From the NCBI GenBank assembly GCA_973895155.1, contig OZ316893.1, forward strand, positions 1,302,860-1,366,859: a stretch of 64,000 bases of DNA, read 5' to 3'. Below, piece after piece: positions 2,221-55,582 of the stretch (positions within the stretch are counted from its first letter, which is position 1; each line of letters starts with the position of its first letter). The translations under genes were made by a program, and so were the position numbers. The notes under the pieces were generated by a model. It was not told the origin of the DNA and ran no database searches. It saw only the letters and a program-made list of their open reading frames with translations. Origin of the DNA: Marsupella aquatica (lineage: Eukaryota; Plantae; Marchantiophyta).

Positions 2221-2292
2221 GGAGTTGAGTTGAGTTGAGTTGAGTTGAGTTTGAGTTGAGTAGTGGAGTGGAGTGGAGTGGAGTGGAGTGGA
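2221..2292. repeat. Compound pentanucleotide microsatellite (TGAGT)n-(GGAGT)n
   Basis: Direct reading of gagtt repeats switching to gagtg repeats. Confidence 0.95.
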
Positions 2293-2925: not shown

Positions 2926-2987
2926 GCGAACGACAAGCGAAAGCAATCGAACGACAAGCGAAAGCAATCGAACGACAAGTGAAAGCA
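2926..2987. repeat. 21-bp tandem repeat x3 in the probable 5' leader of BES1/BZR1
   Basis: cgaacgacaagcgaaagcaat repeated about three times. Confidence 0.9.
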
Positions 2988-3084
2988 AGAAGTGCAGGGC
3001 AGAGCTGCGGAGCAGCGGAGTGAAGGTCGTGAACTGGGGAGTTTAATCTTAAACGAGGAGTGTTCGCCAGGAGGTGTGGATAAC

Positions 3085-24779: not shown

Positions 24780-27115
24780 TAAAACTCACGACCCGGGCTT
24801 CTGCTGGGGTAATTAAGCTCATCCCCAAGAATCAGGATACCGTTGACCTTATCAACTGGAGACCGTTGACTATGCTCACTATCACTGAGAAATTGATAGC
24901 TAAGCTTGTGGCAAACCGTGTGAAGAAGGTGGCATCTCAGCTTGTGGACCCACAACAAACCGGATTTCTGGAAGGAAGAGACATCTTGGACAACCTGATG
25001 ACTTACAAAATGGCCCAAGAGTACACACAACTGACTAAACAGCAGCTGCTTTTTCTCAAGCTGGACTTCACCAAAGCCTATGACTGGGTCGCACACTCCT
25101 TCCTGTGGGCTGTGCTTAGGGTGATGAATTTTGGAGAGGAGGTGATCACTTTAATGAAAGGTCTGGTGAAGCAGACCCAACCCAAAGTCCACATAAATGG
25201 GAGGTTCACTGAACCGATTGACCTATAGAGAGGAGTGAGACAAGGATGCCCCCCTTTCCTCTCTCCTTTTCACCCTCACCACTCAACCGCTTATGGCTTT
25301 GCTCAAGAGAAGAATTGAGTGTAGGGATTGCAACGGGCTGGAACTCTGTGGAATGTGGATCACAGTCTGTGAATCACATTCCACAGACTGTGCTATCAAC
25401 TGTTTGCTGACGATCCACAGTCTGCTAATGTGAATGTGGATCACAGTCTATGGAATGTGGATGCAGACTGTGCTATCAACTGTTTGCTGACGATACCGGA
25501 CTATTCCTTGCAGCCACTGAAGCTGAGTTCACTTGTGCTAGGGAAACTATCAAGCACTATGAGAACATTTATGGGGCATTGCTGAATGTGCAAAAATCTA
25601 AGATCATCCCCATTTCACCTCAAGGACGGAATCTACCCTGGGTGGATGCAAGCTACGGGATGTAGGGTTGCCAAGGAGGGGGAGGTCACCAAATACTTAG
25701 GGAGCCCTATTGGGTACAAAGTCAGGCCCGCACATGAAGCTGCCTTTCTCATTGGGAAATTGAGAAAAAGACTGTCTCACTGGACCAATAGAAGCTTAAC
25801 TATGGCTGGCCGATCAATTTTACTAAAACATGTAGTCCGGTCCATCCCCACCTATCACTTGATGACATTGGAGCTATAACAGAATGGGTACAAAGAGATG
25901 GAGAAAGTTTGCAGACAATTTCTGTGGGGGCCCTCACGACAGACTGGCTGCAAGAAAGCTTTGATTGCTTGGAAGGACATTACTAACACCAAAGGTGATG
26001 GCGGATTGGGTATTCAACCATTTGAGGAGCAGGCCCAAGCCTTGAAGATGCACCACATTACTAAGCTCATCATGGGCACTGACAGAGAATGGATCAAGAT
26101 GGCTCATGACATCATCAAGAGAGGGCTTCATTTTGGACCCAAGAAGAAAGAGAGAAGAGGATGGACAGCTAGTGAAGCCATACTTCTGAGTGACAATCTC
26201 AAGCTCAAAGGATCCACGACGCTGAAAGGTTTGTTAAGAGGATGGCACCAAAGGAGCAAGCAGCTGAAGTTCAACTTTGGGGAGGGGCAGCTCCTTGCCA
26301 ATCTATCTATTGAGCAGACCGTTCTCTTGTATCTACGCAATAACACTATCTCTGATCTTGGAAGCATCCATTTGAGATGCTTCTTGGCTAATCGTGGAAT
26401 CAAGAAACTCTTGGACCTCAGAATAGGGATGGTGGGTGGATTCCCGAAGAGGCTATCACCCCAAGGTTGCGAAGCACCAGGATGGTGGGATTCGAGGAAT
26501 TCAGCATTTTCTACACCAAATTGCAGCAAAGCACAGGTATCACTGAGCACAACTTGCACGAGAGTGAGGGCTGGCAGTGGGGATGGAAGGGAAGAAATCG
26601 GGGCTGGAAATTCCCCAACTCTGTGTGGGCCACCTGCAACAAATGTCAACCATTGGATGTCACGAAGCTAAACAGAAGATGGGGACAAATCAGTCGACCA
26701 CAACAATGGCAACAAAAATGGAAGAAACTGTGGGGTGGGTGCCCTGGGCCCTCACGGGGGCCCTCACTCCATGTAAAAGAAGTGGACCCCCTGCGATCGG
26801 GCCCTTTTTGTGTTTACCCCTTGTTATTTCTGTTTTACCATTAAAAGTTCCCTTATTACCGGTAATAATTATAATTATTAGTTTAAAATGAATAAAAACT
26901 ACCATTCAAGCGTTCGCACGTCCTCCATGTATTAGTTAAGACTGAGGGCCCGGGGGTGGGTTCCCTAAGGTCCGCTTTCTCATCTGGCGGTTGATGCACC
27001 ATCATGGTTTCTTCACAAATGGCAGGGCCAGCCACTGGGGAGTAAGCAATGGTATCTGTGCTAGGTGCAAACTGCAATTTGAGGACACTGAACACCTTTT
27101 TTTCAGCTGCCGCAC
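24780..27115 (+). mobile_element. 5'-truncated, decayed L1-type LINE ORF2 (reverse transcriptase plus zf-RVT)
   Basis: GVIKLIPKNQ...NWRPLTML, QQTGFLEGRDILDN, KLDFTKAYD, RGVRQGCP, QLFADD, KYLG, FLWG...IAWKDI...GGLG and C-terminal CARC...EDTEHLFFSC. In-frame stops end at 25228 and 25879, and there are several frameshifts. Confidence 0.93.
26742..26954. mobile_element. 213-bp hAT-like MITE inserted in the LINE zf-RVT region
   Basis: Ends are CCCTGGGCCCTCA and TGAGGGCCCGGG, flanked by GGTGGGTG and GGTGGGTT (8-bp TSD, one mismatch). Removing the element plus one TSD restores the LINE frame KKLWGGFPKVRFLIWRLMHH. Confidence 0.75.
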
Positions 27116-31800: not shown

Positions 31801-33299
31801 TTTGACCAAGACATCACTCAATCCACTTTTTATGAAATTTGGAATTTGTGAAAGAATGCCAACCCAGAAATATTTTTCACAAAATTAATATGAGGATTCA
31901 GACTCTCAAATGTTTATAGACTTAGGTTTAGTATGAAGTCTAGTTCCCTGCATGATGCTAGTTTTTACTTAAAAACTATAGTTTACATTTTGTTGCTTAG
32001 ATTTATCTAGTTAGTTTAGGATTGGATTTGAAGAGGTATATCTTTTCAAATTCACTTTTGGGACTTCACATATGAGGATAACAAAGAGACCCCAAATCAA
32101 ACTTTGAAATACATTCTATTTCTTCATTGAGTGTTTTGAAATAAATCAATGTCATTCCCTTTTTTCATATGATTGAGTAAAGAGAATAACAATTTTGGCA
32201 ATTCTTGAGTTGCCATGAAAATTTTGATGAATGCTAGTGTGCCTACAAAATTGTTGGAAGAGATCTTATGACTTACCAATATAGAAGATCCACTAATGAG
32301 AGCATTAACATATATTTGCATGGAGCTCATTTAAGCAATCTTGAATACATAGAGAGAAGTAAGTTAATTTCAAGGGTATCCAAGTATCATTTGAAGACCA
32401 GAAAAGTGTCTCGGGTGAACTTACATAATGGTCTTCTAAATTCAAGAGATCGAGAGGAATTTCTATGATAAATTAAAAAGCATATGCAACATTGTTTACA
32501 AATTCTTAAATTAGGCCATAATCCTTGTTGAAGGAATGGTGATAGTCAAAATTCAGTGTCCTTGCTGGATGAAGAGTCAAAGTGTTTCTCTCTAGTTTAT
32601 TTATTTATTATTTATTTATAGTATTATTCTTGCACTGTGGATCATGCAGATTATCCACTAGAGTCTTGTGGTTAAACGCTCATGTTATGGAAAATCATTA
32701 GAAATTTTCCCAACTTGAGGAATGTTGGTGTAACTTCTCAAATCATGTCAAATAAGTCTTTGAGATCTCATCCACTCATAACTGAAACAAAAACAAGTTA
32801 TTTCGGAGCTAAATAGTTATTTATCTCTTTATCACTTACTACTGCATGGTATTGCAATTGTTTCCTAAAATGACAAACATATTTCCTATTACCAACATTT
32901 TTTTTTCTATTACTAGCAAAATGTTACTATTACCAGGGAAAAGTCATTCTAAAAATGTCTCATGAAAAGGAACTTAAAGTCAAGATGGACTGATAAGTTG
33001 TCTATGAAGCCCCATGGACAAACCAAACTTGGATGTACTTGACTCAAACACACATACATGCTTGGATACTATTTGTTACACTTGTGTCCAAAAATACCAT
33101 GTCAGATCATCACTTTTGTTCACCTGTCCAAAAGTACCTCGTCAAATTACCATCTTTGTCCATTTTTGTCCAAAGATACCATGTACCAACCAGATCAGCG
33201 TTGATTGCCCGGTTTAATCTGACGGGCACCTTGACGCCTCGTCGGGCACGTCAAATCGTCAAATGACGGCCCGAAAACACGCAATTTGACGTATATTCC

Positions 33300-33895
33300 T
33301 GAAGATTCTCCCGAACGAACCCCGACTTCCCCGGACCTTTCGCGAACACCTCCCGAGCACCCCGGACCTGAACCCGAACTCCCCCTGACCCGAACCCGGA
33401 CTCCCGGGCCCTTCCCGGACCCTCCCCGGACCCTCCCGGGCCTTTCCCGGAACCTCGCCGGACCCTCCCCCGAACACTCCCCGGACTCTCGGGCCTTTCC
33501 CGGACCCTCCCCGGACCCCCACCCGAACCCTCCCCGGACCCTTCCGGGGCCGGCCGGGGTAAAGGTGGCCCGGGGGACGGGATTCGGGGAACTGGGGACG
33601 GGGGGCATTCGGGGAAGAGGATTCGGGGAACCGGGGAAGGGGGGGCGGGAAAGGGGGGCCGGGATTCGGGGATTTGGGGAACGGGGTTCGGGGAACGAGG
33701 TAGGGGGTTCGGGGAAGGGGGTTCAGGTAGGGGGTTCGGGGATGCGGGGAACGGGGTGCGGGGTGCGGGGTTCGGGGAACGGGGTGTGGGGTTCGGGGAC
33801 GGGGCTCGGGAATTGGTGGTCGGGGAAGAGTTAGGGGCGGGATTAGGGTTAGGGGAGCGAGATTAGGGTTAAGGGAGGCGCAATTAGGGTTAGGA
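33300..33895. repeat. Left subterminal repeat array of the hAT: C-rich CCCGRAC half, G-rich GTTCGGGG half, then TTAGGG-containing units
   Basis: Direct reading; strand composition flips near 33550, and TTAGGG units lie at 33831-33894. Confidence 0.88.
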
Positions 33896-34025
33896 TCAAA
33901 GATTAAGAGTTTTAAGAGAGGATAAGAAGTAGATGATTTAGTATAAGTAGGAATAACTAATTCATTTCACTAATCCAAAGTCTCATTGTGTTTCTCTCTC
34001 TTGTGGTTTAGCATTAGGGAGAGAT

Positions 34026-34380
34026 CGGAGGGATACATTGGAACTCTTGTACGCGCATGCTTTGAGCTCGGCTCGGTCTGCGATAATTCGTACGAGAAGT
34101 TCCTTATATCGCCTTAACAACTTTGCATCATTGTTTTGTTTGAAAGTGAACTACTTGCGAGTAAAGAGATACCCATGTGCATATGCTTAGAGCTTTGGCT
34201 CGGTCTATGACATTTCATATGGGTATCACGATTTCTCGTACATATGTTTACTTCAAAGATAAACTATTGTGAAGTTATAGATATTACATAACATTGGTTG
34301 AAGTAGGGATGTTGACAAATATAAGAATTTGGGAAACTTTCCTGCGCATGCTTTGAGCTTAGGCCCAGTCTGCGATAATT
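34026..34380 (+). promoter_or_regulatory. Three-motif module upstream of the transposase; inverted homolog of 43416-43768
   Basis: Copies of GCGCATGCTTTGAGCTCGGCTCGGTCTGCGATA at about 34053, 34178 and 34344. The module ends about 95 bp before the ATG at 34471. A regulatory role is inferred from position only. Confidence 0.55.
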
Positions 34381-34470
34381 CAGGAAAGTAACCCATTGTA
34401 CTATATTTGTTATATTCACAAAATCAAAAGAATCAACCCTTTTATTTTTTTACCATTGAGAGTCGTAACA

Positions 34471-37392
34471 ATGTCCGATGAAGAGGATTCGCATGAAACT
34501 GGATATCATTCCACTACTCCCAGGCCTGGTCCAACTCGTGTGCAAGAACACCCTTCAAAACAATCTCCAGTGTGGAGATATTTTGAATGATGTGATGCGC
34601 CTTCAACATGTCATGATGTCAATCGTATCTATCGAAGATGCAAGTATTGTTTAACATACGTTACTCATCATGCAACACGAGCAAAGGCGCATTTGATGGG
34701 AAACATCCAAAAAGGGGATGCGCCCCCTTGCATGCAACTCTATGGTGTCGTCGATTTGGATGCCATCAACATTATGTACAATGTGATAAAGGTTCCACCA
34801 ACCTTAAAGTACAAACGACGAGATGGAAGTCATATCTTGCGGGATGTGAGAGGTCGTAGGCCAAGCGTTGGAAGTTCATATTCGCAAGCATCCACACAAG
34901 GGTCAAACTATGTTGACATGGATGATACACATGTAAGGGAAGGAGATAGGCCAGTAAATCTTCCTAACCCAATTATGGATGCCTATCAAATTCCAAATAG
35001 AACAAATTTGGATAAGCTTTGGGCGAAAGCTTTCTACACCAGTGGTATTCCATTCAATGTTTCAAATAATCCTTTTTTTCCAGAAGCAGTCATAGAGACT
35101 TCAAAAGGGATTGTCAATGGTTATTCTCTACCTACGATGCGAAGTTTGCGATTGAAATTATTGGAAGATAGTAAGGAGGATCTCACAAAGGACATGACGC
35201 ACACTTTAAAGGAGGCAAAACCTTATGGGTATTCTCTTTCTTCAGATGGATGGGAAAACGTTCGAAGAGAACCTTTGATGAATGTCATGTTGTTGACTTC
35301 TAAAGGTGACTTCTTCTTGGATAGTTGGAATGCTGCGCAAGCTGACAAGAAAGATGGGAAATATCTTGGCGACATGTGGTTGAAATACATTGAGGATATT
35401 GGTGCAGATCATATTATTCAAATTGTAACTGATGGAGCACCCGCAAATCGCGTAGCAGGTTGTGAGGTAGTCATGAAAAAGTATCCTCATGTCACTTGGA
35501 GCTGGTGTGCTGCCCACGTGTTTAATTTGCTGCTAGAGGATATGTGTGGTCACAAGCGTGTAGTGCTAGATGATGCTGGACAGAATCCATTCCAAAAGAT
35601 TTTTAAACGGTTGAGGTGGATAGTAAAAGCAGTTTCATCATCGCAAAAGCTTTCTGCAATATTTGCAAGAAAATCTCCTGACAAAAAACTGTTGAATCCA
35701 AATGCAACTAGATTTGCGACCAATTTCCTAATGGCACAAAGAGCGTTGGAGCTAAGAGGAGCTTTACAACAGATGGTCATTGATGATAATTGGCAGTCTT
35801 ATCGTGATAGACTTCCATTGCGACCAAAATCAGCTGGACACATGACGAGGGGAAAGGCAGACGAACTTAAAATGTGGATACAGCAAGATACATTTTGGGT
35901 TGAAGTGAAGGATACAGTTAAATTCTTTACTCCGTTGGTCAAGATGTTGCGAGAATTTGATGGTGATTCTCCGCAATCAGGTTGGTTGTATTGGAGTTTG
36001 AAAAGAGGGATTGATGTTTTGAAAGCAAGCATGGAGGATTGTCCATTGGTAACAGAGGTATTGAAACCAAAGATACTAAAAGTGTATTTGGATCGGAAAA
36101 AATCTCTTACCACTGATTTCATGCTAGCGGCAGCATATCTCAATCCCCAAATGTTTTTTGATGAGGACATAGATGTCGCTAGAGATCCAAAACTCTACAG
36201 GGGTTTCAGTGAATACATTGCTAGATATTCAGAACAACAGGTGAAGGAAGGGATCAACCATGATCGCGACGTCAGAGAACTTATTTCTGCCATCCACAGT
36301 CAAGCCATTGACGCCCAAAAAAAAAATCCCAACACATCAATAGCGATGGGAGCCGCCCAATCATGTATAGGTAATGTCAGTCCAGCAGAGTGGTGGCATG
36401 CGTATGGTGCAGATTATAAACATTTGAGAATCCTGGCGCGAAGAATCTTACACCAAAAAGTGTGCGCATCAGCTTGCGAGCAAAACTGGAGTTCGTATGG
36501 ATTTATACATTCCAAAAGTCGCAATCGATTGACAAATAATCGAGCAAAAGATTTGGTGTTTGTATTTACAAACATGAGGGTAGAGAAAGGGCTCACAAAT
36601 GTTCGAAACCCGCATACGTTTATATATGAACGTTATGACCAAAGAAGAAGAACAAATGATGGACCTAGACCTATCTCCATGGAGTTGTGCAGCAATGAAG
36701 AGTACGATGCAACACGTGCGGCTCTTGGTGAAGAAGATGTCAAAGATTATGATACAATTGATGATGCTGATGAATTGCTACACGGATTTTCACTGGATAA
36801 GGATAGTGAGTTCTTGACTCGTATTCCACCAGATACAGACATCATTGCTGCAGAGGAATGGGAGAATGAAATGGATTTGGAGATGTATCCTACAATTGAT
36901 GAATCGCAAATCCAAGACGAGGAAGATGCATCACTGGACAGAAACTTTGTGATGCCTTCCCAACCAAGGTCACCTTGGTCGAACTTTGCGAATGATGTTG
37001 ACACAAGCAGACCATATTTCAACGAGCAACGCACAGGCACAGCAGGGCATCCGACGAATGGAAGGACATCAACCTTTTTTCATGGATACAACAATCATGA
37101 AGGTCAAACTTCAAACGACCCACATGCAAACTGGCAACACCATGCAGGTCCACCCTTGAATGCGTATGCAGGGCCAAGTGTCATGAATCCATATACGTCG
37201 AACAGGCCTATTGGATTGGTGGGTTTCGAGGAATATCATCATTTCAAGAAACATCGCACAATGTTCAGTCACACAATCGTGATCCACTCAGTTGGGGCGA
37301 CAAACAAGACGAGTGGAATGCGCTTTTGTGCAAAAATCTTAACAACAATGCACGAAATTTCTCTTCACAGCCTTGAAGCATCTTTTCATTAG
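34471..37392 (+). pseudogene. hAT transposase (BED zinc finger, DUF659/RNase H-like DDE core, hATC dimerisation domain) with one premature stop
   Basis: ATG at 34471: MSDEED...SPVWRYFE*CDAP...RCKYC...TRAKAHL (BED finger, in-frame TGA at 34588-34590), continuing in frame into the 899-aa ORF. That ORF has SSDGW, VTDGA, WCAAH, TRF, EWW..YG and ASACEQNWSSYGFIHSKSRNRL, and an acidic low-complexity tail. Confidence 0.95.
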
Positions 37393-37659
37393 GATAATAT
37401 CAAGTGTTGCTACTCTTATATTGTCGTATCTGACATAGACAAAATTATAAACAATTATATTTTTTGTAACATGATTGTATTGTCTTGCAGTGTGTTTATT
37501 ATTGTACAATGATTGAATAATTTATTTGTATTTGCATTTGAGAATGTCATAGAGACACACCAACGCAACATGTTTTCCAAATCTCCAACACTGACTATTT
37601 CAAAGTACCTTGTTGTTGGCCATAGCAGCCGTAGTCCATACCAACCCCCTCCATTAATT

Positions 37660-38940
37660 GGTTAGTTCATTTCACTATGCGAAGATTTAGTCCAGCAATA
37701 GAGCACCGTCATATTCAATAATAATGAGGTCGAGAGGACCTCATTATTGGACCTGAGAATGTCATTGCTTGAATAAACCTTCTCGTAATAAAATAAACTT
37801 AGTTGAACTTGAAGTTGTAATGAGGGCCCATTTTTGGGGTGGGTGAATGTCGTTGACCGTAGCAGCTGCACTACTTGAAGTTGGGCAGAGTTTATATGAC
37901 TATGAGAGAAGTTGTGAAATGAACACATCGCCTACATAATCAGTAACCTTCTCATAATCATATAAACCCCGTTCAACTTGAAGTTGTAATGAGGGCCCAT
38001 TGGTGGCCAAGGAGAGCAATGTCATGATGATGATCAGACACGGTCACGGGGATTCCGCAAGATCGGTCACCAAATTGATATGCAGACGCAAAATACAGTC
38101 ACCAATTTCAAGTCAAAGTTCACCCGTTTATATCCTCTCCTGTCCGAATTCCAATTCGAGCTTGGACACCCTCTCGTCAGCAGGTCTCCACCCTTTCAGT
38201 TGCTCCTCACGCGAACCTCTGGATTCCTCAAACACTATGAATGATGCATTGAAATAAAATAGGTTTGAGGATTCTAGAGATTGCTATCTTGGTTTGCGTG
38301 AAGAGCAACTGCAATGGTGGAGACCAGCTGACGAGAGGATGTCCAAGCTCGAATTGGAATTCGGAAAGGAGAGGATATAAACATGCAATTGTGCGAATTA
38401 ATGTCATAGGCCGTAGCAACCGTACTCCAGTAATTGGTCAGTTCATTTCATTATCAGAAGATTTATTCAAGCAACGGAGCACGGACATATTCAATAATAA
38501 CAAAGTCAGGAGGACCTGAAATATTGACCTGAGAGTGCCATTGCTTGAATAAACCTTCTCATAATGAAAAAAACTCTGTTCAACTTCAAGTTCTAATCAG
38601 GGCCCATTTTTGGGGTAGGCAAATGTAGAGGCGTTGGCCTCGGTTTGCATGTGCATGAATGTCATTGGTCGTAGCAGCTACGCTACTTGAAGTTGAACAG
38701 AGTTTATTTGAGTACGAGAGAAGTTGTGAAACCAACGGATCGATGACATACTCAGTAATTTTTTGCTCGAAGGACCTGAAAATTTGACCTGAGAGTGCAT
38801 TTGCTTTCAGAATTTCTCTCGTACTCAAATAAACTCCGTTCAACTTCAAGTTGTAATGAGGGCCCATTTTTGTGGTGGGCAAAGGAGTAGGCGTTGGCCT
38901 CGGTTCGCATGTGCATGAATGTCATTGGCCGTAACAGCAA
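37660..38940. repeat. Degenerate modular repeats inside the hAT spacer
   Basis: gtt(c/g)aactt(c/g)aagtt(g/c)taat(g/c)agggcccatt occurs four times (about 37802, 37971, 38578, 38838), and further blocks (...atgaatgtcattgg..gta, ...gacctgagag) are repeated. Confidence 0.8.
38126..38382. repeat. Long inverted repeat (fold-back hairpin) inside the hAT element
   Basis: Outer arms 38126-38217 and 38291-38382 are reverse complements with about 7 mismatches in about 92 nt. An inner stem of about 20 bp (38218-38238 with 38259-38278) closes a loop of about 20 nt. Confidence 0.9.
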
Positions 38941-39443
38941 TAGCGGAAAAAATTATGAAAGACAGGAAAAGTGAGTGGACTTAGGTATACATCCTTCTAC
39001 AAAATCATTCTCAACTTGGGCGGCTACAACCATTGCGATGTTGACTTTGTTGAACTCATTGTGCTACACGATCTCCTTTTGGAAATGATTTCAGAGAAGG
39101 ATCAGTACCTGAGTCCACTGTGCTACCGTCTCTCATCACGTCTATTTTCCTCATACTTGTCCAAAAATATGATTGTGAGCCCGACAATATGCTTCCAAAA
39201 CCTATGGCTGATTGGAGGATGGAATATTCTTACGAAAATACACATTCTCCAAAAGGCGACGCCATGCCCCCAATGAAAAATATATGTACTCAACGAGATA
39301 TGCAATGTAATGTCACTCCAAAATCTCTTTACCAATTACAAGTTGAAAATAATTGTCAAAGAGGATATGCCGCTTCTATTTTAACAAAATGTCTCTAATA
39401 GTAACTACATGAAAATAACATCAAAATGTAGAGACTATTGGTT

Positions 39444-41402
39444 TTAGTTCCTTTTGTTGTTATTGTCAACAGCTTCTGTTTTCACCTCTGCCTGTTGTTG
39501 ACGTCCTCGATGGCGCCGAATGGATCGTTGCAAATTTTGCTCATCTATTGATGGCTGGTTGGCTGCCGCATATTGTTTCCACTCATCGAGTCGACCACTG
39601 AATAACAACCTGTCAAATTCCCCATCTGACAAATTATATTCATTGATTGTGAAATGTTCAATGGGAGTTTCATCTATTTGCATCGCCGGTATAGTATCTT
39701 CAGTCATATCTTCAGTCATATCTTCAGTATTTTGTTGAGTCTCCATTGATGGCATTTGCTTCAACAATCCTCGTTGCTCATACTCGCGTTCATGAAATGG
39801 TGTGCGACACCAACATTTTCGGCTTTTCTTCAACCATTTAGACAAGCAAGCATGATGCCATATATGACCGCAGGTTCCCAACATGGAAACAGATTCAGGG
39901 CCCCAAGGATATAGGCACCAAGTACACTTGTCATCCTTTTCACGAACAAATGCTGCCATAGTTTCATCCTTTTTCCACTTATCAAAAAACCTATCAATAC
40001 CTTCCGCGTCAACCTCCACATCTGGAAAAAGGTTGCTGTGCCCTATAGGATCTATGATTTGCATGTTAACAAAATTTGGCGACGATAATTCACCTTGCCC
40101 TTTGTTTGACCTCATCCCCAAAGCACCATTGTTAAATTCTTGCATCTCTTCGTGAAGATTTGATATGATGATTGCTTGCGTTGCAAGTTCACTTTTAAGA
40201 TCATTAATGATCTTGTCCTTCTCCTCAAGTCGTGCCAGTTCATTGCATTGACGCTCTTTTTCAGCAAGTTGTTTTGTCAGCTTATTGATTTCTTCCATCT
40301 TGTCAAACAATTGACACTTGTACAACATCACTTCCGAATTGGTCGTCAGCTCGTTCTACTTCTTCTCAAGTGATCTCATCTTTATATCAGCTTGTTGCAA
40401 TTGTGACTTGAACTTTTCGATGCTGCCACATTCACATAGCTCCACTACATACTTCGTGCAGAGATTTGTCTCAATCACCTCTGCAACATCTGCCCCCAAG
40501 CTCTTGCATATGTTGTGCAGGTTGAACTTATCCTTGTTAGCATCAGTAACATTGTTGTTCTTTGCATGTGGAGTTCTACTCCCAACACCTACAAGGATTG
40601 GTTTTTTGGTGTGCGTTGACTCCACATTGGTTGGTGGTGCTGCACGGTCAGGCATGGAGACTCGAGGAAGTACAGCCACTTTCCCCTTCTCATGCGCATA
40701 TCCCTCCCCAGTGTCATCTAGCTTTCTTTTGGATCCCTTGTTGGAAGTCTCCATTGAAGGGTCCTTTGCAATAGTTGTATTCCTATTCGTTGCAATCGCA
40801 ACCATTGATGGATGCACCTGATGAGTCAGCTTGCCAGCACTGTTTTCCCAATGGTAATCCACCTTCCACTTGAGAATGAATTCAGCAATCAGACATCGGA
40901 TAAAAGGAGGGTAAACGGAACTCATTTTTGTTTGGGCTTTGTGTGGAGCAAACTCTCGATATCGTTGCTGCCAATGTGATTTAACACCTGCATGTGTTAC
41001 TTTGGACATGGTGAATTTTTCTTGCGCCCATGATCTTGTTGCCCAAAGATCCGGATCGTGAAAAACTTGTTGTGCTAATGGCCAAAAGTCTTTCTTTGGC
41101 ATCAACATCTCCAATTCCTTTGCATTCATGGCCCATTCGTCATGGGGAGGATTTACATTGGGCGTTAATATACTCCATTCATCCTTCATATCCTCATCTT
41201 CCCATCTTCTTGTGTTTGGCGCCGGTGTTCCATCAACCTTGGGTTTAGCCTCATAGTGAATGCCAATGGTTGTAAGATTATCCAACACATTATTACGAAG
41301 AGCTTCATCGTCACAATAGGATCCTTGACCATCTTGCATGGTAAGATGTTGTGTCGTGAACTCTTTATCTTCATCATCAGAAGACAATTCCCATCGTCCC
41401 AT
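39444..41402 (-). pseudogene. hAT cargo: about 650-aa coiled-coil plus RING-H2-like protein (putative E3 ligase) with one premature stop
   Basis: ORFs 40356-41453 and 39444-40331 are in the same frame, separated by one TAG (SLEKK*NELTTNSEVMLY). The probable start is MGRWELSS at 41402. A heptad-rich segment (MEEINKLTKQLAEKERQCNELARLEEKDKIINDLKSEL) precedes CTWC...CGHIWHHAC...W...KCWCR. Confidence 0.8.
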
Positions 41403-41582
41403 GTTTGCGATGTGTACAAAAGGTCTACGATATTTGACAATGTACAAACACATTTAGCATAATTTTGGGCATTCACGACAAAGTTTGATAGAATATTATC
41501 AACAAAATGCAGAACATTGTAATTGACATACAATGAATAAACATATAATCGTTAAGGTGACCTTTACAAAATTGTGTAAACC

Positions 41583-43193
41583 CTAATCTCTAATCTCTAA
41601 GATATGGACTGTTGTGCAAATGCAATGTGCAATCTGGAAACGTTTGAAAGCACAATCCATTCTTTTCTTGGCATCCGTGGCCATCATTTCACGGATTATG
41701 ACATCCAATTTGGGGCCATGCACTTGTGCACTCCAACCCCTCCCCAAAAACCGTGAACCCTTAGACATTCCATCCCAATTCTCTGTCAACAATGTCTCAA
41801 AAATATTCCCCAAAGCATATATATCGGTACTTTCACTAAACTCGACATGGGTAGGTTGAACAAGCTCCGGAGCCAACTGTGGAAATTGTTTTTGGTATGT
41901 TGCTACTTTTTCTGTTGCTGTGGGCCACATCCGATTAGCTGGTAATTTGCACATAAACCAACATACACCTTAATAGCCACATCGTGCTCGTGATCGAAAT
42001 GAAGAAGGATGTTTCCAAAGTGAAGATCACAATGAAATCGATCATGCTCATGCAAGTATTGCAGTGTCTCCAGCAAAGCCAAGGCGATTCCCAACCGGTT
42101 CTCCAACAAGAGTTTCTTCTCCGAAATAAACTTGAAATCAAGGTCCGTCGTGATCTGTGCCTTCTCCTTGCTCTTTGACGATATGCCGCATTTATCAATA
42201 AAGCTACCCAAGTCACCTCCATTATAGTGATCGTAAATAAGTTTTGGCGGATCCTCAATAGTCAACGCAAGAGCTCCAACGATTCCCTTATGATTCAGTC
42301 CTCCCATAAGCACTTCTTGTAATGCGTCAATTCGTCTCTTATGCTTGTCTCCATCCTTGAACCACTTTGCGACTAAGGTCACGTTGACGGGAATGAGAGG
42401 ACAATGTAATATACGACAAGTGTATACCTCTCCTTGGATTCCTTTCCCAATGCGACGTGTGTTGTGCACCTGCTCAGGTTTAAGAAAATGGATACTCCTA
42501 ACCTCTGGAACTACACGCGATGGACGTGTTCCTTTTCGAGAACTTTTGATGCTGACATCCCCAAAGTGCACAATCTCGTTAGCATATTTGACATTGCTAT
42601 CAGATTTTGCCATTGCCAACTCCTTACTCCACTTCACTAGCAATTCTCTCTTGTGTGTGTACATCCCGGGGTTTCCAAGCAATGTAGTGTCACCCTCTTC
42701 CACTTTGGCTGCCAAATTATCCCAAACATGCTTCTCCAAGTTGAGTGCCAAATTTTCCAGAAATCCTCCCGGTTTCTCAGTTTCATCTTCAAATGACTTC
42801 ATTTGCTCTCGTGTGAAATTGTCCTCCTTTTGTACACTTTCCCGCATACAACGGGTTATCTCACCAAGAAAGTTCTTGTATCCATTCTCTCCGTGTCTTG
42901 TGAACTCCCTCTCGAACCCGTCCACCCCATACTATTTCGGTAGTGTAGCGATAAAGTATCTCTTTCCATATCGACACTACCACATTGTGTCGAACCTGTT
43001 TTGCCTCTTCGTTTGCCCCCTTCCGTTTTCCTTTCCCGGCCACTTTGCTAGAATTCCTAGCATGTTTGAGAGTGTTTCGAGCGTTCTTCAATGCATCCAG
43101 AGCAACAAGATTCGGCTCATATCCCTCATTCACATGTTTTGTGATCATCTCCAACACTTGCCTATACTCTAAACTAAAATTTTTGATGACCAT
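41583..43193 (-). pseudogene. hAT cargo: protein kinase with an N-terminal extension of unknown function; two frameshifts
   Basis: IGKGIQGEVY (Gly loop), VAKWF (subdomain II Lys) and HCDLHFGNILL (catalytic loop), then after a frameshift near 41950, LAPEL and STDIYALG. A second frameshift near 42925 joins the 43193 ORF (EIVWG/VDGFEREF). Confidence 0.88.
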
Positions 43194-43415
43194 GTTTTCC
43201 CTTCACAAAAAGAATATGTGAGGGAGGAACAAGATCTTACCGGGATTTAAATAAAATCCTTCCAATAAGGATTCAACGACCAACCTGAAAATTACAAGTC
43301 GTATTGTTATTATCTTTTCCCGGTTTATTTCTCCCATGCATTATGTATTTTTATTGCACACATGATTTTAATTACCTTTCTATATAATAACAATAAAAGA
43401 GAAAGACAACACTTG

Positions 43416-43768
43416 TGAAATATCGCAGACCGAGTGGACGCTCAAAGCATGCGCACAAAAGTGTTCTTTTCTTTCAAAGTTGTTATATTCCTGCTTCGAC
43501 ATATGTGATTTGGTGTCTATAACTTAACACTCATTTGTAATTCAAGTAAAAACATTCTCGGCAAATCGTGGTATCCATGCAAAGTATCGCAGACCGAGCC
43601 GAAACTCTAAGCATGCGTACATGGATTCCTCTATCTCCGCAAATGTTTTACTTAATAAACAAAGGAGACTAAATTGTTAAGGTGATATTAAGAAATTCTT
43701 GTACGGAGTATCGCAAACCGAACTGAGGCTCAAAGCGTGCGCGTACAAGTGTTTCTTTATATCCCTCC
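43416..43768 (-). promoter_or_regulatory. Three-motif module upstream of the kinase cargo gene; inverted homolog of 34026-34380
   Basis: TATCGCA(G/A)ACCGA...CTC(A/T)AAGC(A/G)TGCG at about 43421, 43585 and 43709. Spacer sequences also align in reverse complement with the left module. Confidence 0.55.
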
Positions 43769-44084
43769 ATTTGGCTCTAAGGTTAGGGTTTAAAACACAA
43801 AAAAAACTTAAAAAATCACAAAACAAAACACAAACAAATAAAAACAAACCAAAAATAAAAAATAAAAACCAAAACCAAACACTTACCTCCTCCTCCTCTC
43901 CTCCTCCTCCTCCACTCCTCTCCTCCTCCTCTTCCTCCTCTCCTCCTCTCCTCCTTTCTGCAAAACCGAAAATGAGGAGGGAGAGGAGGGATCTCCTCCT
44001 TTTATCCTCTCCCGAGCCCCGACCCTTTCCCATCCGGCCCCATCCTCCAACCCTAAATCGCGAAACCCTAATTCTCCGAGCCTC

Positions 44085-44455
44085 AATCCCGAACCCCGAA
44101 CTTCCAAACCCCGAACCGGACCCCGAACCCCGAACCCCGAACCGGACCCCGAACCCCGATCCCCACCCGGACCCACCCCGGCCTCCCGGACCCGAACCCC
44201 ACCCGGACCCCCACCCGAACCCCCCGCACCTCCTCCTTCCGGACCCGAGCCGCACCCGGACCCCACCCCGAACCCCCACCGAGCGGTCCCGAACCCCACC
44301 CGGACCCCACCCCGAGCCCCCACCGAGCGCCTTCGCCCCGGACCCGGACCCGATTAGTCATCCGGACCCCCACCCGAACCTCCTCCCGAACCTCCTCCCG
44401 AACCCGAACCCCGAACCGGACGTTTCCTTTCCCGGACTGCTTCCGAACCCGGGTG
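44085..44455. repeat. Right subterminal CCCGAAC/CCGGAC repeat array of the hAT
   Basis: Dense cccgaacc/ccggaccc units; their reverse complement matches the G-rich half of the left array. Confidence 0.88.
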
Positions 44456-47400
44456 CCGGGTTGTCAATTTGCCGCTCTCAAACGCCCAGTTTGACGGGCA
44501 AGGTCAAACCGGGGTTGATTGGAAGCTCATTGTATTCTCTTTGTATCCTTTTCCCTCAAGCTAGTCACTTTTACCATTTTTTTAGAATTCAATAGAAAAA
44601 ATATAAATGTGTAAGGTATGTTTAGGTATTTGTATGCATTATCTGGCCTTTATGGTAATAAAATTATATAGACTAAGCTCTCCACAATTTACTCTAGTGC
44701 CTCAAGTAGTTTGTTCAATGAGCAAAAGCAAAATTATTCAAATTTTTACTCAAGAATATTTTTATGCTTATAATATATAGATCGCAAAAATCCCACAAAA
44801 GGGGGAAACAAGCAACACAATCCCCGTGAACCAATATAACAATTTTCACTAGGAAAACTGGGTGCGAATCTTGATTTTCATAGAGCATTGCTCTTGAGGC
44901 GAAATTGTATTTTCCATAGAGTGTCGCTCTTGTGTTAAGGAGAGGTTTGACTTATTTAGCTGCAACAAAATTATCTCAGATTTTAATCTAAGAGAGTTTG
45001 TTGAGAAAACTTATTTTTCATAGAGCATTGCTTTTTCACGAATAGCACTTCAATTAATTTCCCACTGCAAAGCTCCAAGAAATGATTTTTCAAAGAGCGT
45101 TACTCTTGTTACAATAAGCGCTTCCGGTACTTTGCTGTCGCGGAGGTCTCAAAAATTTCAAATACAATACTAGATGTAAATCTTTGTTTCATTCAATACA
45201 TATTTTCAGTTCAAGTGTACATAGACTCCTAATGTACTTGAAATGTAAGTAAACAGCTAATAGAATATTGATTACCTAGATTTTTTCATCATTAAGTGTA
45301 AAATGCTTAGTTTATGTGTCACAGTCCATGGGGACGATGGGAGATAACCTTCAAGTACATCCGAGCTTTGGTTTCCATGAAAAGTCTCATTTTCCAAAAT
45401 TCTTTAAAACATAACTTCTTTTGGCTAGCTTTGGGCACTATCATTACCAACTCTGGGCGCTAGCAAAACAATGTTAACTTATACCAAAATAAACTCATTT
45501 TTTCATTTAATTTTTTAAAACTATTATCACCCATTTCCTCATTATTAGTAATTGTTTCCTGTTGTTTGTAAATACCTCCTACAACAAGATACAAGAAAGA
45601 AAAGTAAGCAAAAAATGAAGAGCAAAAGCAAACAAAAAAGTTGGAAGCCCACACTCAATGATTGCAAGTGGAGACAATCAGTGAAATTTTATGACTTTTT
45701 GAAATCAAGGTACACACAAACACACTTGGAAAGATAGTAGTAACATGTGTTGAGTCAAGAGCTCAAGGGGTTAATTAAATGTATATTTTGGGGTATCACG
45801 TGCAATTCTAACCTAATATAAATAAACCTATTTTATAAAGAAAATATTCAAAAAATATTTTCAATATTTAATATTAATAACCTATTTTACTTTATAAAAA
45901 GTAGATATTAAAGGATAATTAATAAATATGTGTTTATAATACCTTCTTTTGTCTCCTATGCTTTTTAAAAATTTAGTTAATTTCTACCAAAAATACATAT
46001 TTTGGATTGCATGTGATTCCTAAGATTTGTTATAGTCAACCCCCGAGGTCAAGAGAAACTAAAATAACTTGCTTTGGAAGAATACTCACTCTATTCATGG
46101 CAAAAGAGCAAAGAATTGGCTAAAGAGTGCATGTACTCTAGTACTTCATCTCAAAACTGAAGGATAGGAAGAAACTTAACTCCATAGATTTAACAAATCA
46201 ATGAGGTATTCATAAATCCTAGCTTAGAGTACTAGATTTGTTTGATAAACAACATGATTAATCTAGTTTCTTCTTCTTGTCATTTGCAAAATAGTATATA
46301 AGGATTGATTACAATAATTAGACTATATAGATTAGACCGGTCTGCAAAAAGATATACATGGACATGCTCCTTAGTTGTTGAAAAATTAATTTTTTGATTT
46401 ACAAATGATACCTCCTGACAGAGCAAGTAAGCAACCAAATGCATTCAAATAATTTAACATTTTTAAGTTTTAAAAATAAAGCAAATAGCAAACATCCCGC
46501 AACCTTTAGTGACTCAATAAAAATCTCCAATAAGAAGAACCTCTTTGGCAGTCTTAGGGGCCTCAATCCAAGAGGTTTCCCATATCACGCGCAAAGTTTT
46601 TGAGAAATAAACACCTTCAAACTTAAGCCACTAATTTGATTTTATGGTAATGTTTACCCCTAATTTAACAGAATATTATTGGAATATTTCCAAATTTGGT
46701 CTTAAAAAACACTATGATTCTTATAATTATAAAAAATGGATTAAAACAACCCTAATATTTTAAAACTAAATTTTAAATTATTTTACTAAACCCAATTAAA
46801 AACCATATATTTATTTGCGCATGATGGGTTGGAAGAAGAGAAGTGAGGACCTAGGGCCAGCCGTATGCTATTCTATTGTATAGTAAGAACTATCTAATAA
46901 TAGTTTGACAAATAAATTGCTTTGAAGATGATGTGAAGCCAGACAATGAAGGAGGAGTGAAAAAAATGAGAAAGCTTGCAATAAATCTTTTGATGTTATA
47001 TTTTGTATATGTAGTTTACTAATTTTTGATTGATTCTCAATGATTTTAAGTACACCAAATTGAGAAAGTCAAGTTAGTTCTAAGTAATGCGTTGGAGTTT
47101 GATTTTGATATTAGGTTATTTTGAATCAAAATTTAAAGTGTAACTCTAAAATTTTGACTGACCTTGAGAGCGGCGCATGTAAAAGCAAGATAGTAGAGTA
47201 TTGTAAGTTGATCTATTCAGCACATAAGGTGCAAAATTGTAAGAAAAAATTCAATCATCGATCAAGTTTACAATAATGTAGAATAGCCAAGATATAATAA
47301 TTTCATGACACAACAAAAGCATAATACAGTCCAAACAACAAGGCATTTGCAGGATCAAACAAGGGCCAAGAGAATAATGCTCAGTCTATATCTAAGAAAG

Positions 47401-48990: not shown

Positions 48991-49860
48991 TCACATCGCG
49001 TTGAATTTCCGCTTGGATGTGGTGGGTTGTTCTGTTGTTGTTTGGGCAGGGACGTCAGATAGCAGCCCCTGGTCGTTGCTCCTCCTCAGCCTGTCGATCA
49101 GGGACTGGGATTGCTGATGTGTCAGCCCTACCAACATATCAAGTGGCATCTTGAAATCATGCCTCAATCTGGTCAGTTACTCTAGACGAGCTCCCTTTGT
49201 GACCTGGATGTACTCACGCATCCCGTCCTTGTAAGTGAGCTGGTCTTCCTCGAACGGAACTGCCATGTACCTAAGAATCTCCTTCATGACACCTGCATTT
49301 GTTTTCAACACGGAGTTAGTGCTTAATGTGTGCATGAGATGGTTTAATTCATTTTTTATTGGGGGTTTTCTCTTTGTGCTTACCAGTCGCCGGTTTATCT
49401 CTCTAATGATCATAGAAGTCGGCCTTGAACACTTTCCTCTCCTCGATCATCTTCGACAGTTCTCTCCTCTTGATCCCATTCACCATCTCAATTGTCTCGA
49501 TTCCGAGACCGTTGCCGAAAGCAATTTGTTTAGCCGTTACCTCCTCGTCAGTCCGAAAGTCATCCGACGGCAGCTCTCTCATGATCATCCTTGCCATCTC
49601 CACGGCTGTCATGGGCTGCAAAGGAAAGACGTGAACAATGTGTTAGAACAATAGTGCCCGTCAATGTTAATGAATCTTGCAACTTTTGTATCATCATTTC
49701 ATTATATATCGCTTGCATCAACAAGGTGAAGTATGATGTGGACACTGTTTACCTGAACTGTTGTAGGACTAGCGCTTGTCGGATTGCTATTTGCGCCTGT
49801 CATTGTTTCTCGTTGTTGTTGTGATGCCTTCGCTGCCTTGTTGCCTTTGGTGGTCGACAT
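48991..49860 (-). pseudogene. Spliced accessory gene downstream of RepHel, function unknown (about 240 aa reconstructed)
   Basis: Exon 1 49860-49753 (MSTTKGNK...SPTTVQ, 36 codons); phase-0 intron 49752-49616 (CAG|gtaaac...cctttgcag|CCC); exon 2 PMTAVEMARMIMREL... with a frameshift near 49410. An in-frame TAA ends at 49177, and reading continues LTRLRHDFKMP...SKRKFNAM* to 48991. Confidence 0.6.
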
Positions 49861-52800
49861 CTGCTTGTTGAACACGACGAATTGGTAAGTGGAACACTTT
49901 GAAGTCCGGCGGCGTAAGATCTCCAACAATGCGCATGAATGCTCTATTTGTGACCCTACTCAACATAACGTACACCAGTCCCGGTATGAATGCACTGTTT
50001 ATTTCTAGCATGACCTTGCCCGCTAGTGTGAAACCTTGGCTCTTGTGACCTGTTATAGCGTATCCGAGCATGAGAGGGAAAGTGGATTCCCGATGGGTTT
50101 GCTGTCCCGAGATGAACTTGTTCTCGTGAACCGTGCGGTTGATCTTTACGAGGCAGTGGTTGAAAGACATTCTCACAAAAATTGACATTTTGCCTTCGGC
50201 TTCTGTAGTGATTTTCTCCACGATTCCTCCGTTGCCGTTCGCGGCCTGCTTGGAGAGGTCGATGTTGTGTGTGAGAATCACCTTGCATCCGATTGCAACG
50301 TTCGTCAGTGTGTGGAAGGAGGGATCTTGTATCCAAGGCCGGGTGGATTCGTCTGAAGGGGCATTGGTGAGTATTGGGACGGGCACGATCTCTTGGCGTG
50401 GAAAATATCTCCGTAATGCCCGTTCATTGTAGTTGTTGACTGTTTCTCTATGTGTGCATATCACGGTCATCGAGGCATCGATGAAATCATGGGCTTCTTG
50501 TTTGGACATGTAACAACGTCCCAGGCACTCATCGATCGATTCTTGGGTAGGGAGGCCTGTGCGGATGTTGTTAAGGAACTTCATGAACTCCCGATCTGTG
50601 CTCTATCTGAGCACAGTGCTGAGGTGAAATTTCTGCATGGTCTCAAAATATGGCGAGGACGAGAGGTGGCACGACCTGCATATGTCGTTGGTGTGGTGGG
50701 TGCAAACCGGAGGCAATTGGCACATGTCTCCGACCAGGATGACCGTCTTATTTTGGAACGGGTCAGATGAGCGGTCCTCGTCTTGGAGTGTCTCGTGTAG
50801 TCTTGTGGAGACGCAACGCAACAGTCTGGGTGTCAGCATGCTCGCCTCGTCTATGATGAACACGTCATTGTTCCTCAAGATGCGGTATTGGGAACTGGTG
50901 ATGTGCAGAGGCCTGAGCTCTCCTTGTATTGGAATGCTGAATAAGGCATGCATTGTCACCGCGTCCGCGTGAAGGTTTATGGCAGCCGCGCCCGTGGTGG
51001 CACACATCTTCACCTTCCTCCCTTTATATGTCCAGTATTTGTTCATGAAAGAGATGAAGAAAGTCTTGCCGGATCCCGGATTTCCATCAATCATGAACAT
51101 ACCGCTCTTGACATCCTTGAGTGCCTCAAACACTCTGATTTGGTCCGAAGTCAAGTTGACGGTCGGGAGAGTTTTGTCATTGAGCACCGCGCCAATCGGT
51201 TTCTCTACGGTGACGGTGGGGACCGCTTGGAATGTGGCCGCGTCGTTGAAAATTTGGTGGGGAAGCTTTTCGTTCAGCTCTTGTAGCAGGTGGGATGTGT
51301 GGTGGGTGGAGTAGAGGTGCGATGCACAATAATCAAGCACCAACTTGTGTACGTTGTTGACGCTGGTTATCAACTTGCGGTGTATGCACTCGTGCAAGTA
51401 GCTCCACGTCTCGCTTATGGGCCTGAGGAGAATCTCGCCTTCTGCACGGAATCTCACGACCTTCAGGAGGTAGTCGTAGAAGAAGCCGTTCATCTTGTAT
51501 ACTGGATGATACTCCGAAAATTGCACGAGCCGATCCGTCCGATACACAAAATTGCCTTGCAAATCCCTACCGACGTAGTCTTTGGTGGTGCTTTTCTTAT
51601 TGGTGAAGACCTCATGGTTGGTGAAGTAGTCGTAGAAGGACATTGCAAACATGTCCTCGGGCCTCTGTGCATAGAGTCTGGTGGGATGCAAACATATCCC
51701 CGAGGACTTACGGTAGATGGCGGACCTCAGTTCCGGAGGCGACGAGTCCATGAATGCCACTATTTCCGAGCGATGGATGATGCTGATTTTGAGGCACGTC
51801 AAGGCCGCCTCCATGGCACACACGCTCCGAGACACGACGGCTCCGCTGACGAGCTTGAGTTGGACTTCAGACAGGTCCTCGAGTCCTAGAGTGCGCGCAT
51901 CGTTTGCATTGAGCTGGAGTGATCCCAAGGGCTCGCATTTGATCGCATACTTGAGCAAATAGAATGACCAGGCCGCATTTGTGATGCGCTGCAGGTTCAT
52001 GTGCGCGCCCCACAATAGCAACACGAGCGGGTGGTATGGCATGACATTTTGGTGATGGTCGCTTGGCCTATGGTACCTCCATTTCCCCGTGGCGGGGTCG
52101 ATGGCCGCATCTTTGTCGAGGTGAGTTTCTTGGGGGAAACCCAACTTGCAGTACTTGAGGCCGGTTTGGGAATGCCTTTGCAAGCACAAACCCTCCTTGC
52201 AGTAGTGAAGTTGTTTCGTCACCACGTTGCGATACAGGGTCTTTTCTTCAAGTCCATTCGGCTCTTCAAATCTTCCAGATGTCGAGTCGAATCTGCCAGG
52301 GATGAATGCGGAAATTTTGTTTGTGACTCGATCGACGTCGCAATCCTTGACCCATAGCACCATGTGGGCGTGGAGTGATCCACGGCCCTGCAACTCGTAC
52401 TTGATGATGTAGTGGATCACATTTCCAATTATGGCGCGTTTCGACAAAATATAATCCCTGAAAAAACGTTGGATTCGTTCGTGGAAGAGCACGGCGCATT
52501 CGACAGGACAATCTTTCCATGAGAAGGTCGGATTCATCCTCTTCACAAGGTTCTCGAGGTCGGCGATCTCAGGCCAACGGGTGTCGCTAAGCTCATCGCA
52601 AGTGAGCGTGAGGAAGAAATGGGGCAGTCCCCATTTTCTCACCATGCACTTGAGGTCGTCGATGTGTCTTTCGTGCCAAGCCGGGCTCCCAGGAACGGCC
52701 TGCATGATTGTCTTTTTTATCAGCATTTTGTATATTTCCTTCTCGCTAAAGTGGGGGCACTTCTCCTTGATCTGCATGTATTCCTTGTCGATTACTATCG

Positions 52801-53960
52801 TTCTGCTCATGCTTGCTACTTGGCTGGCCTGTCGCAATTGGTACATGATAAGCATGTACGGCTTGTACAAAGTGAATATGCTGAACAATTGTTGTGTCCT
52901 CTATTTCATGTAGTCGATCAAGCTGAGTTGTCCTCGATGGAAACCCCTTGAGTGGACGAACAAGAACGGGAACATTGCATTTTCCAATGTCAATTGTGGA
53001 TCGTTCGATAGTCCTTCCGCGTCGGTGTTGACGCTCTCTTCGGAGCACATTCTCTTGCGGTCGTACACGGTGCCGGAACGAAAGACCTGGTACTTGCGCT
53101 TGTGTGAAGTCGGGATCCTGTACTGCACATCTTGGAGGATGTGCAGGTCGGGGTCGAATGTGTCAAAGTTCATGGATCTCGTGGTGATTCCCTTTGCCCT
53201 CTTGTCTTTGATGATGTTCTCTACTCCGTCGGAACTTAGGATGCACAGTCCCAGTGACGGGTCTGGCAACTCGACCAATGAACGTATCTTCTGAAAAGTT
53301 GGTTGGTCGTCAAATTGAGTTCCATGACCTTGTATATCTGTTGCATGATCTCCTCTTGATTATTGCACTCTAGCGTGTCGAGATTCCAGGATATGAGCAG
53401 GTTGTCAAGGAGGCTTTCCTTTTTGTAGAAGCTAGAGTGGAAGCCATTGTACTTTTGTATGATGCCTAATCGAGAATCGATTAGCGAGAGCAATTGCATG
53501 TACAACGGCTTCGCGGCTAGGATGTCGATCGCATATTGCGGAGATATGAAGGAGTTTATCTTGATACGGGCGGGGTTTCGCACGCAAGTCACGCACACGT
53601 TGATTGTTCCATCTTGGTTCTCAATGTACTGGTTGACAAATGCGTTGCATATGCCGTACGGCGTCATGTTCACCTTTGGTACAGTGGTGAATGTTTTGTC
53701 GATCCTCTGAGTGTTTCCGTATCGAACTAGTCCGCACATCCCGCACACCTTCATGCCTTAGATTGTCTTTTGGCAGATGGCTCTCCATTCTTGGAGATAA
53801 AATGGGGCTGAGGCCCATCCTTGACATAACGGACTCAGTGACTTGGCACAGGTGTTTATTGCACGCCTTCGTGCGGCATGTCTCTTCTCGGACATTGTAT
53901 GCCGTGACATTTTTGGGGAGACCTATGCAAAGGATTATGAACTCGTGAATTTTCTTAGCT
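49787..53960 (-). mobile_element. Decayed Helitron-like RepHel transposase (Helitron2/Helentron-type motifs)
   Basis: N-terminal CGMCG...VCVTC; HUH Rep motifs GSPAW, HFFLTLT, YELQGRGSLHAH and YLLKYAIK; PIF1 helicase motifs GNPGSGKT, ATTGAAA, IIDEASM, GDMCQLPPV, FPLMLGYAITGHKSQG and YVMLSR. In-frame TAGs end at 52901 and 50603, with frameshifts near 53280 and 53755. The 5' limit is approximate. Confidence 0.93.
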
Positions 53961-55225: not shown

Positions 55226-55582
55226 TTTGTGAATTGGTACAGGTAACTATAGAACCTTGTAATCTAATCTAATGAATTATATAGGTTTAATACTCAGTCA
55301 ATATAAAGATATATTTGTATATATATGTATATATTAAAATATTTCTTCATGTTCTTTACGAAGTGAGGATCTTTGTTGCAATTCAAAATTGTAATGACAA
55401 AAAGCAATTCAGACATGGCTATGATTTGGAGTTGGTCTGGATTTGAAGCACACTAAACCGTCTTAAAGGACCGCAACAGAGTAAATGCCAAATTAAATAA
55501 CCAAAAGTTATATTAGAAAATAGCAAGGAGTTTAGGGTTCAAGAATCATGTTAGACACCACACAAAAAGCAGGAAGAACTTG

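Follow-up and report, generated by a model that had tools for sequence, protein, structure and literature searches.

The window, the 64,000-nucleotide (nt) stretch of contig OZ316893.1 from the liverwort Marsupella aquatica that was analysed here, contains an 11.3-kb hAT transposon that carries, in addition to its transposase gene, a protein kinase gene, a third open reading frame (ORF3) for a coiled-coil/RING-H2 protein, and a cluster of predicted hairpins. The transposase is encoded on the plus strand and the kinase and ORF3 head-to-tail on the minus strand, a layout that had been proposed in an earlier reading of the letters alone (the original prediction) and that is confirmed by Pfam domains and the arrangement of the ORFs. 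The cargo had also been described as apparently intronless and closely packed, and indeed the coding regions align to homologues without introns and 180 bp separate the kinase stop from the ORF3 start. The claim that the cargo ORFs are full-length fails, because no ORF of this copy is intact: the transposase has a TGA, ORF3 a TAG and the kinase three deletions.

Table 1. Features of the hAT element and its insertion site (positions in the window)
Feature	Position	Strand	Support or remark
Left target-site duplication, GTTGATTG	33200..33207	.	Target-repeat paralogues that resemble empty sites
Left terminal inverted repeat, 8 bp perfect	33208..33215	+	Depth step and foreign flanks at that point
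Left G+C-rich subterminal array, CCCGAAC/CCCGGAC-type motifs	33308..33900	.	Motifs absent from the interior
Left copy of 350-bp block, three motif repeats, upstream of transposase	34027..34382	+	Inverted match to right copy
hAT transposase ORF of 973 codons; codon 40 is TGA in this copy	34471..37392	+	Domain hits; sister copies read C at 34588
Five predicted long hairpins, four paralogous with common 21-bp stem	37655..38858	.	37655-37800, 37860-37995, 38120-38388, 38430-38585, 38678-38858
ORF3: unnamed N-terminal domain, coiled coil, RING-H2, conserved C-terminal region	39444..41402	-	TAG at 40356-40358 in this copy
ORF for a protein kinase with helical N-terminal region and TKL-like kinase; relatives about 550 aa	41583..43193	-	Three small deletions in this copy
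Right copy of 350-bp block, upstream of kinase	43416..43768	-	Homologue lies upstream of the L001 kinase
Right G+C-rich subterminal motif array	44040..44460	.	
Right terminal inverted repeat	44506..44513	-	
Right target-site duplication, GTTGATTG	44514..44521	.	

The exact ends and the perfect target-site duplication (TSD) of 8 bp in the original prediction were borne out, with a step in contig depth and foreign flanks. The element (33208..44513) opens with CCCGGTTT and closes with AAACCGGG. Most hATs start with C/T, A and a purine, unlike the ends of this element, which begin CCCGG. The terminal inversion is perfect over 8 bp and matches at 11 of the first 13 positions; the hAT norm given in the accessible part of PMC3942097 is a terminal inverted repeat (TIR) of 10–25 bp. 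By itself an 8 + 8 match is close to what chance would give in 64 kb: the same scan returned three hits, two of them unrelated to the element. We nevertheless take the ends as real because contig depth jumps and other flanks join at 33208, and because copies of the target repeat continue into sequence like the right flank. The contigs came from runs X1–X4, four of the seven listed runs and from two studies; X5–X7 (shares 0.16, 0.08 and 0.05) lay outside this set. Depth in X1 rises from 106 before 33208 to about 900–1,250 at 33208 and is 174 past 33280. At least three other flanks are joined to the left end at 33201–33207 (among the 12 of 20 loose ends and 16 of 203 pieces listed), and target-repeat contigs cross 33208 into sequence resembling the right flank of the window, as expected of paralogous empty sites, the target being single-copy there. 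Because the depth of 106 is below 174 and itself includes target paralogues, many sister copies must sit elsewhere, a deduction that X1 allows and X4 does not. CpG depletion is weaker within the element (0.58–0.74) than in its flanks (0.26–0.38), as expected of a young insertion.

Two observations concern the insertion site. Depth over the first 70 bp of the element (33208–33278) is several times that of the remaining left arm, and at 33276–33278 other contigs part from it; a more abundant related or non-autonomous family has the same terminus. The element landed in an AT-rich, high-copy repeat (33009–33207 and 44522–45333) about 1 kb long, which carries CCCCATGGAC at its left and that sequence's reverse complement near 45324, and which is possibly an element resembling a miniature inverted-repeat transposable element.

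By its transposase and its 8-bp TSD the element belongs to the hAT superfamily. The transposase matches DUF659 (PF04937; 104 bits, cut-off 34.7, E = 7e-30) and Dimer_Tnp_hAT (PF05699; 37.3 bits, cut-off 21.4, E = 2e-9), and has relatives at 68% and 60% identity, with three hits at E ≤ 1e-40 among 7993 candidates. All six aligned proteins retain the SDGW, TDGA, CAAH and CE motifs, which we take to supply the catalytic D, D and E and the CxxH. The N terminus has a W..F, CxxC and H pattern that may mark a BED finger, with no Pfam BED match on either ORF piece, and the tail of the protein is long, acidic and poorly conserved. Since nearly all depth at position 34588 reads C (584.5 of 604.1 in X1), the premature stop of the transposase is private to this copy.

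The kinase domain was recognized by Pfam on the minus-strand pieces (E = 9e-12) of a gene that lies here in three frame pieces; its lesions are near 42941, 41951 and 41647. The deletion at 41951 leaves this copy without DFG, and contigs from X1, X3 and X4 carry extra letters there that we read by hand as encoding it. Twelve relatives at 51–82% identity were found among 2095 candidates, the closest annotated in the liverwort Calypogeia fissa; solved structures gave weak matches (best E = 6e-8) of tyrosine-kinase-like (TKL) and tyrosine-kinase types. The family retains the Gly loop, VAIK lysine, helix C glutamate, HxD..N, DFG and APE, with an unusual HCDxH loop (HCDxHxxN in 13 of 15 aligned rows, the other two being truncated) and with DFG in 10 of the 11 homologues whose sequence reaches the motif. 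On these motifs, the kinase of the sister copies is probably an active non-RD kinase. Metagenomes yielded 28 kinase loci, two of them strong (L001 and L002, the pair analysed here) and 26 weak (22–32% identity). The kinase is under purifying selection: against L001 and L002, non-synonymous divergence (dN) is 0.32–0.39 and synonymous divergence (dS) 2.07 or saturated. Three of the 12 inner branches of the kinase tree (15 rows) are strong. A predicted model was poor (predicted local distance difference test (pLDDT) 54.9) and gave a generic kinase match (best Z 11.2, root-mean-square deviation 3.5, 123 aligned). Like ORF3, the kinase belongs to a closed, unnamed family.

ORF3 is interrupted at codon 366 of its read-through, a position through which its homologues read. 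RING-H2 (PF13639) scores 28.2 bits on the ORF3 piece (E = 2e-6, cut-off 27.3) and 26.8 on the whole read-through; the ligand pattern is present, with CxC as its last pair, and the ligands are kept in the relatives P0042, P0019 and P0035. Such a protein would be expected to have E3 ligase activity. Among 1.84 billion representatives ORF3 has 19 relatives, intact ones measuring 632 aa at 57% and 624 aa at 38% identity, and the RING is the only consistent Pfam match across the 13 family members scanned. The N-terminal 140 aa form a conserved domain whose fold is predicted at pLDDT 88.5. For this domain, Foldseek gave no match at E ≤ 0.001, the best VIA hit had a Z of 2.8, the Atlas returned unnamed clusters and a weak cluster linked to Mutator-like elements (MULEs) with recognition below threshold, and no homology to the kinase was found. 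No ordinary host kinase or E3 appeared as a close relative among the 12, 2 and 19 homologues compared. A viral origin of the kinase and ORF3 was considered and rejected: none of 116 and none of 78 pattern matches in viral contigs proved to be a relative.

The 1.2 kb between the convergent genes contains the hairpin cluster, with fold-back z values of −4.5 to −23. Four hairpins are tandem paralogues, and of their 19 stem pairs 5 differ on both sides; as much covariation arose in 5 of 500 shuffles and in none of the slid controls, the structure having been predicted from the same four sequences. Each would form the stable fold-back with a conserved 21-nt duplex that characterizes plant MIRNA genes; an Rfam search returned no family at gathering score. 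The hairpins look like a MIRNA cluster that may be processed into small RNAs. Targets within the element or L001 did not stand out (best penalty 5.0 from 650 guides; shuffles 4.0–7.5). That the arms are remnants of a known gene was rejected, as none of 14 peptides hit Pfam and two PDB searches gave chance hits. One hairpin arm (37770–37800, minus strand) translates as L-F-Y-Y-E-K-V, which the three paralogues fit less well and which may resemble, possibly by chance, a catalytic motif of DRM-type DNA methyltransferases.

Inside both ends, and nowhere in the interior, lie arrays of CCCGAAC/CCCGGAC motifs that are likely to be transposase-binding sites. The two 350-bp blocks, one upstream of the transposase and the other upstream of the kinase, mirror each other (72% inverted match, E = 2e-46) and are likely to act as promoters. 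One 9-mer occurs three times in the window, once upstream of each ORF, the motif having been picked post hoc and two of the copies not being independent. A purine-rich stretch between acceptor-like and donor-like sites, at 43886–43956 (minus strand) and again near 34012, suggests spliced 5′ leaders of the kinase and transposase transcripts.

The right block recurs outside this element. The 330 bp upstream of the kinase in L001, a 5.8-kb metagenome contig, align with it (119 nt at 70%, E = 3e-8); there the kinase is intact and is followed head-to-tail by a non-hAT DUF6729 gene (E = 2e-11). Because the upstream block is common to the window kinase, the transposase and the L001 kinase, the kinase and its upstream block form an old module. 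Directly behind the L001 kinase (2584–5521 of that contig) lie the DUF6729 ORF and a 653-aa ORF without a Pfam hit, apparently one intron-split transposase gene; an ORF that follows the DUF6729 gene shows transposase-like motifs. The element on this side is probably of Zisupton/KDZ type. Over the 5.8 kb of the contig, either a swap between superfamilies or a second element that landed behind the kinase could produce this arrangement.

The contigs also bear on how widely the cargo is present in the family. Six interior contigs of X1, spread over the transposase, spacer, ORF3, kinase and the two subterminal regions, reach depths of 183.5–243.1 and carry 4–10 differences per 596–1604 nt (0.4–1.0%), with left-flank contigs at 14.3–18.2; in X4, interior depth is 360–427 compared with 28.4 for the flank. 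Depth in both runs is even over transposase, spacer and cargo, and single contigs bridge the transposase and spacer (36743–38345), ORF3 and the kinase (40930–41621), and the kinase and the subterminal region (42799–43785). These values suggest about 10–15 near-identical copies with the whole cargo, as an estimate in which depth does not equal copy number, and we infer a recent cut-and-paste spread of the family. Further contigs match all three genes at 86–88% identity and suggest that an older subfamily exists. Few of the contigs share the transposase stop or the DFG deletion, which are minority states; in the sister copies the transposase codon appears to be open and the DFG of the kinase present. 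In a scan of the element, no inner TIR or TSD was found around the cargo beyond six 2-bp chance hits. The proposal that the cargo genes are integral accessory genes of a transposable element (TE) family therefore gains support from the even depth, the lack of inner TIRs or TSDs and of a close host donor, and the purifying selection on the kinase. Three outcomes had been named beforehand as counting against it (copies without the cargo, a nested insertion, or a neutral copy of a host locus), and none was seen.

Compared with the hAT superfamily (Ac, Buster and Tip groups), the element has the same DUF659 and dimerization domains, 8-bp TSD and subterminal repeats and, to a degree, the short TIR, but at 11.3 kb it is over twice the 2.5–5 kb typical of hATs in the accessible text of PMC3942097, and it has two extra genes and the hairpin cluster. 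Extracts of PMC6710886 describe DUF659 hATs of 9.5–9.9 kb with 8-bp TSDs in the fungus Pseudocercospora fijiensis that were amplified with a histone H3 cargo; that cargo is a retrocopied housekeeping gene damaged by repeat-induced point mutation, whereas here no close host donor was found and selection is purifying. The TBE transposons of Oxytricha (Tc1/mariner) have three ORFs, one of them a zinc-finger/kinase ORF under purifying selection whose function is given as unknown in the sections of PMC4724952 at hand; they differ in superfamily and kingdom, in their ANT target, in their 4-kb length and in joining kinase and zinc finger in one ORF, and those sections report no hairpin cluster. Mavericks carry KRMA kinases, a novel kinase family preferentially tied to a mobile element, but these elements are virus-like and from nematodes and the kinase is HipA/CtkA-like with a ubiquitin-like domain (10.1101/2022.07.12.499685, in excerpt). 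A plant parallel is the VANDAL Mutators with VANC, likewise plant DNA transposons with accessory genes and repeated non-coding motifs; TE-encoded anti-silencing proteins bind such tandem motifs (PMC5735166, in excerpt). VANC is a MAIN-like protein (PMC13547354, in excerpt) for which a demethylating effect has been shown, and no VANC/PMD-like (MAIN) domain was detected by Pfam in the 13 ORF3-family members or by fold searches. The original prediction knew of no hAT family with this gene set. We likewise met with no publication describing a hAT that combines kinase and RING genes, in a literature search whose scope excluded supplements, Repbase and subscription journals, which may hold such a family, and neither 'hAT' nor 'kinase' occurs as a whole word in the texts of PMC13317346, PMC13547354 and PMC6431247. 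The precedents of the TBE kinase, the Maverick KRMA kinases and the H3-carrying hATs somewhat lower the novelty of such a cargo-carrying element. The hairpin cluster, the mirrored 350-bp blocks and the unnamed 140-aa N-terminal domain of ORF3 are new relative to the original prediction.

The ends, TSD, domains, lesions, even contig depth, foreign flanks, kinase conservation and hairpin covariation are the observed parts of a reading that we consider reasonably probable as a whole: the window holds a broken copy of a multi-copy hAT family in which transposase, kinase, RING protein and hairpin cluster are standard, the accessory module acting in trans against silencing. The family would move by ordinary hAT cut-and-paste, and the mirror-image promoters would co-express transposase and cargo. 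More tentatively, because the case is argued from analogy, we suggest how silencing might be countered: the kinase would phosphorylate and the RING protein ubiquitinate a host chromatin or silencing factor, possibly recruited by the N-terminal domain of ORF3, while the hairpin RNAs would lower a host transcript, and the module would thereby keep the family transcribed and mobile. The kinase and RING protein, found here only in mobile-looking contexts, are under long-term selection, which argues for a benefit to the element. We favour counter-silencing because silencing is the pressure that plant TEs counter with accessory proteins, as set out in the available portion of PMC5735166.

Two other explanations are live rivals. 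The accessory genes may be integral and yet act on the element's own machinery, the kinase modifying the transposase and the RING protein turning it over to tune the timing and dose of transposition. The mirrored upstream blocks, which suggest co-expression with the transposase, the long, acidic and poorly conserved transposase tail, and the selected kinase ORF of TBE (PMC4724952, in the same sections) all agree with this; nonetheless, the kinase family and its upstream block also adjoin the non-hAT gene of L001, which fits a substrate independent of the transposase and makes a host substrate likelier, so we regard self-directed action as unlikely. We think it quite unlikely that the kinase and RING protein are a toxin–antidote or gamete- or spore-drive pair that punishes loss of the element. 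Their tight head-to-tail arrangement would suit such a pair, as would the kinase being the most damaged gene of this dead copy, and mobile elements offer parallels in a Maverick cargo that became a toxin–antidote element (10.1101/2022.07.12.499685, in excerpt) and in Enterprise, which carries Spok drivers (PMC8092012, in excerpt). Against this, drive at a single site would bring little to a family of about a dozen dispersed copies, the L001 kinase has no ORF3 behind it, and the kinase resembles TKL-type eukaryotic kinases and not the HipA/CtkA-like KRMA type.

Passive Pack-type capture, or a nested hitch-hiking insertion without function for the element, is very unlikely. All ORFs of this copy are broken and the fungal hATs carry decayed H3 copies (PMC6710886, in extracts), but the identifiable host-gene fragments and neutral evolution of Pack-type captures were not found among the homologues compared, inner termini are lacking, the kinase is under purifying selection, and an upstream block is common to the transposase and a distant kinase locus. 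That the cargo is kept because the host benefits, with the transposon spreading a kinase and E3 that serve in stress or defence, is highly improbable: both proteins are conserved long-term, but in Calypogeia fissa their relatives occur as several partial proteins on separate contigs, as decaying mobile copies would and a fixed host gene would not.

Several points weigh against a family-wide cargo acting in trans. The linkage of the three genes rests on depth and short bridging contigs, no full second copy having been assembled; interior depth in X2 is uneven (870 and 2544 compared with 66), and X1 is possibly the source sample of the window. The foreign flanks are not assignable to cargo-bearing copies, because the first 70 bp are common to more abundant relatives. 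The kinase of this copy has three indels, and the state of the ORF3 TAG in sister copies is not among the 40 of 1243 difference rows listed. In Calypogeia fissa the partial kinase and ORF3 proteins have non-adjacent accession numbers; they fit decaying mobile copies without thereby showing linkage of the two. In L001 the DUF6729 gene and not ORF3 stands behind the kinase, so kinase and RING protein are not an obligate pair. Arm-to-arm conversion in tandem paralogues could also produce the stem covariation.

Elsewhere in the window, a Helitron Rep/PIF1 helicase remnant lies at 49787–53754 on the minus strand (Helitron_like_N, E = 8e-25; PIF1, E = 1e-21), ORFs of 158–358 aa without Pfam hits lie at 1693–4601, 21528–22010 and 25898–26671, some within G+C-rich, repeat-rich DNA, and a 356-bp tandem duplication with further partial copies occupies 55580–56745.

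hATs are usually treated as one-gene elements. A young hAT family with two conserved enzyme-type genes and hairpins would be a testable case of phosphorylation, ubiquitination and small RNAs acting on the host, outside the one well-studied example of VANC in Arabidopsis, and since the transposase codon of sister copies seems to be open and their kinase to keep its DFG, substrates could be searched for directly. With this locus come a kinase family and a 140-aa domain, both unnamed, and a warning that annotations of liverwort genomes list genes of this sort as belonging to the host. A broader reading, at present doubtful, is that hAT and Zisupton/KDZ-type DNA transposons of bryophytes exchange a swappable counter-silencing kit, which has its own kinase, E3 ligase and microRNA cluster and is driven by a duplicate of the transposase promoter; if true, this kit would be the transposon version of a viral silencing-suppressor module.

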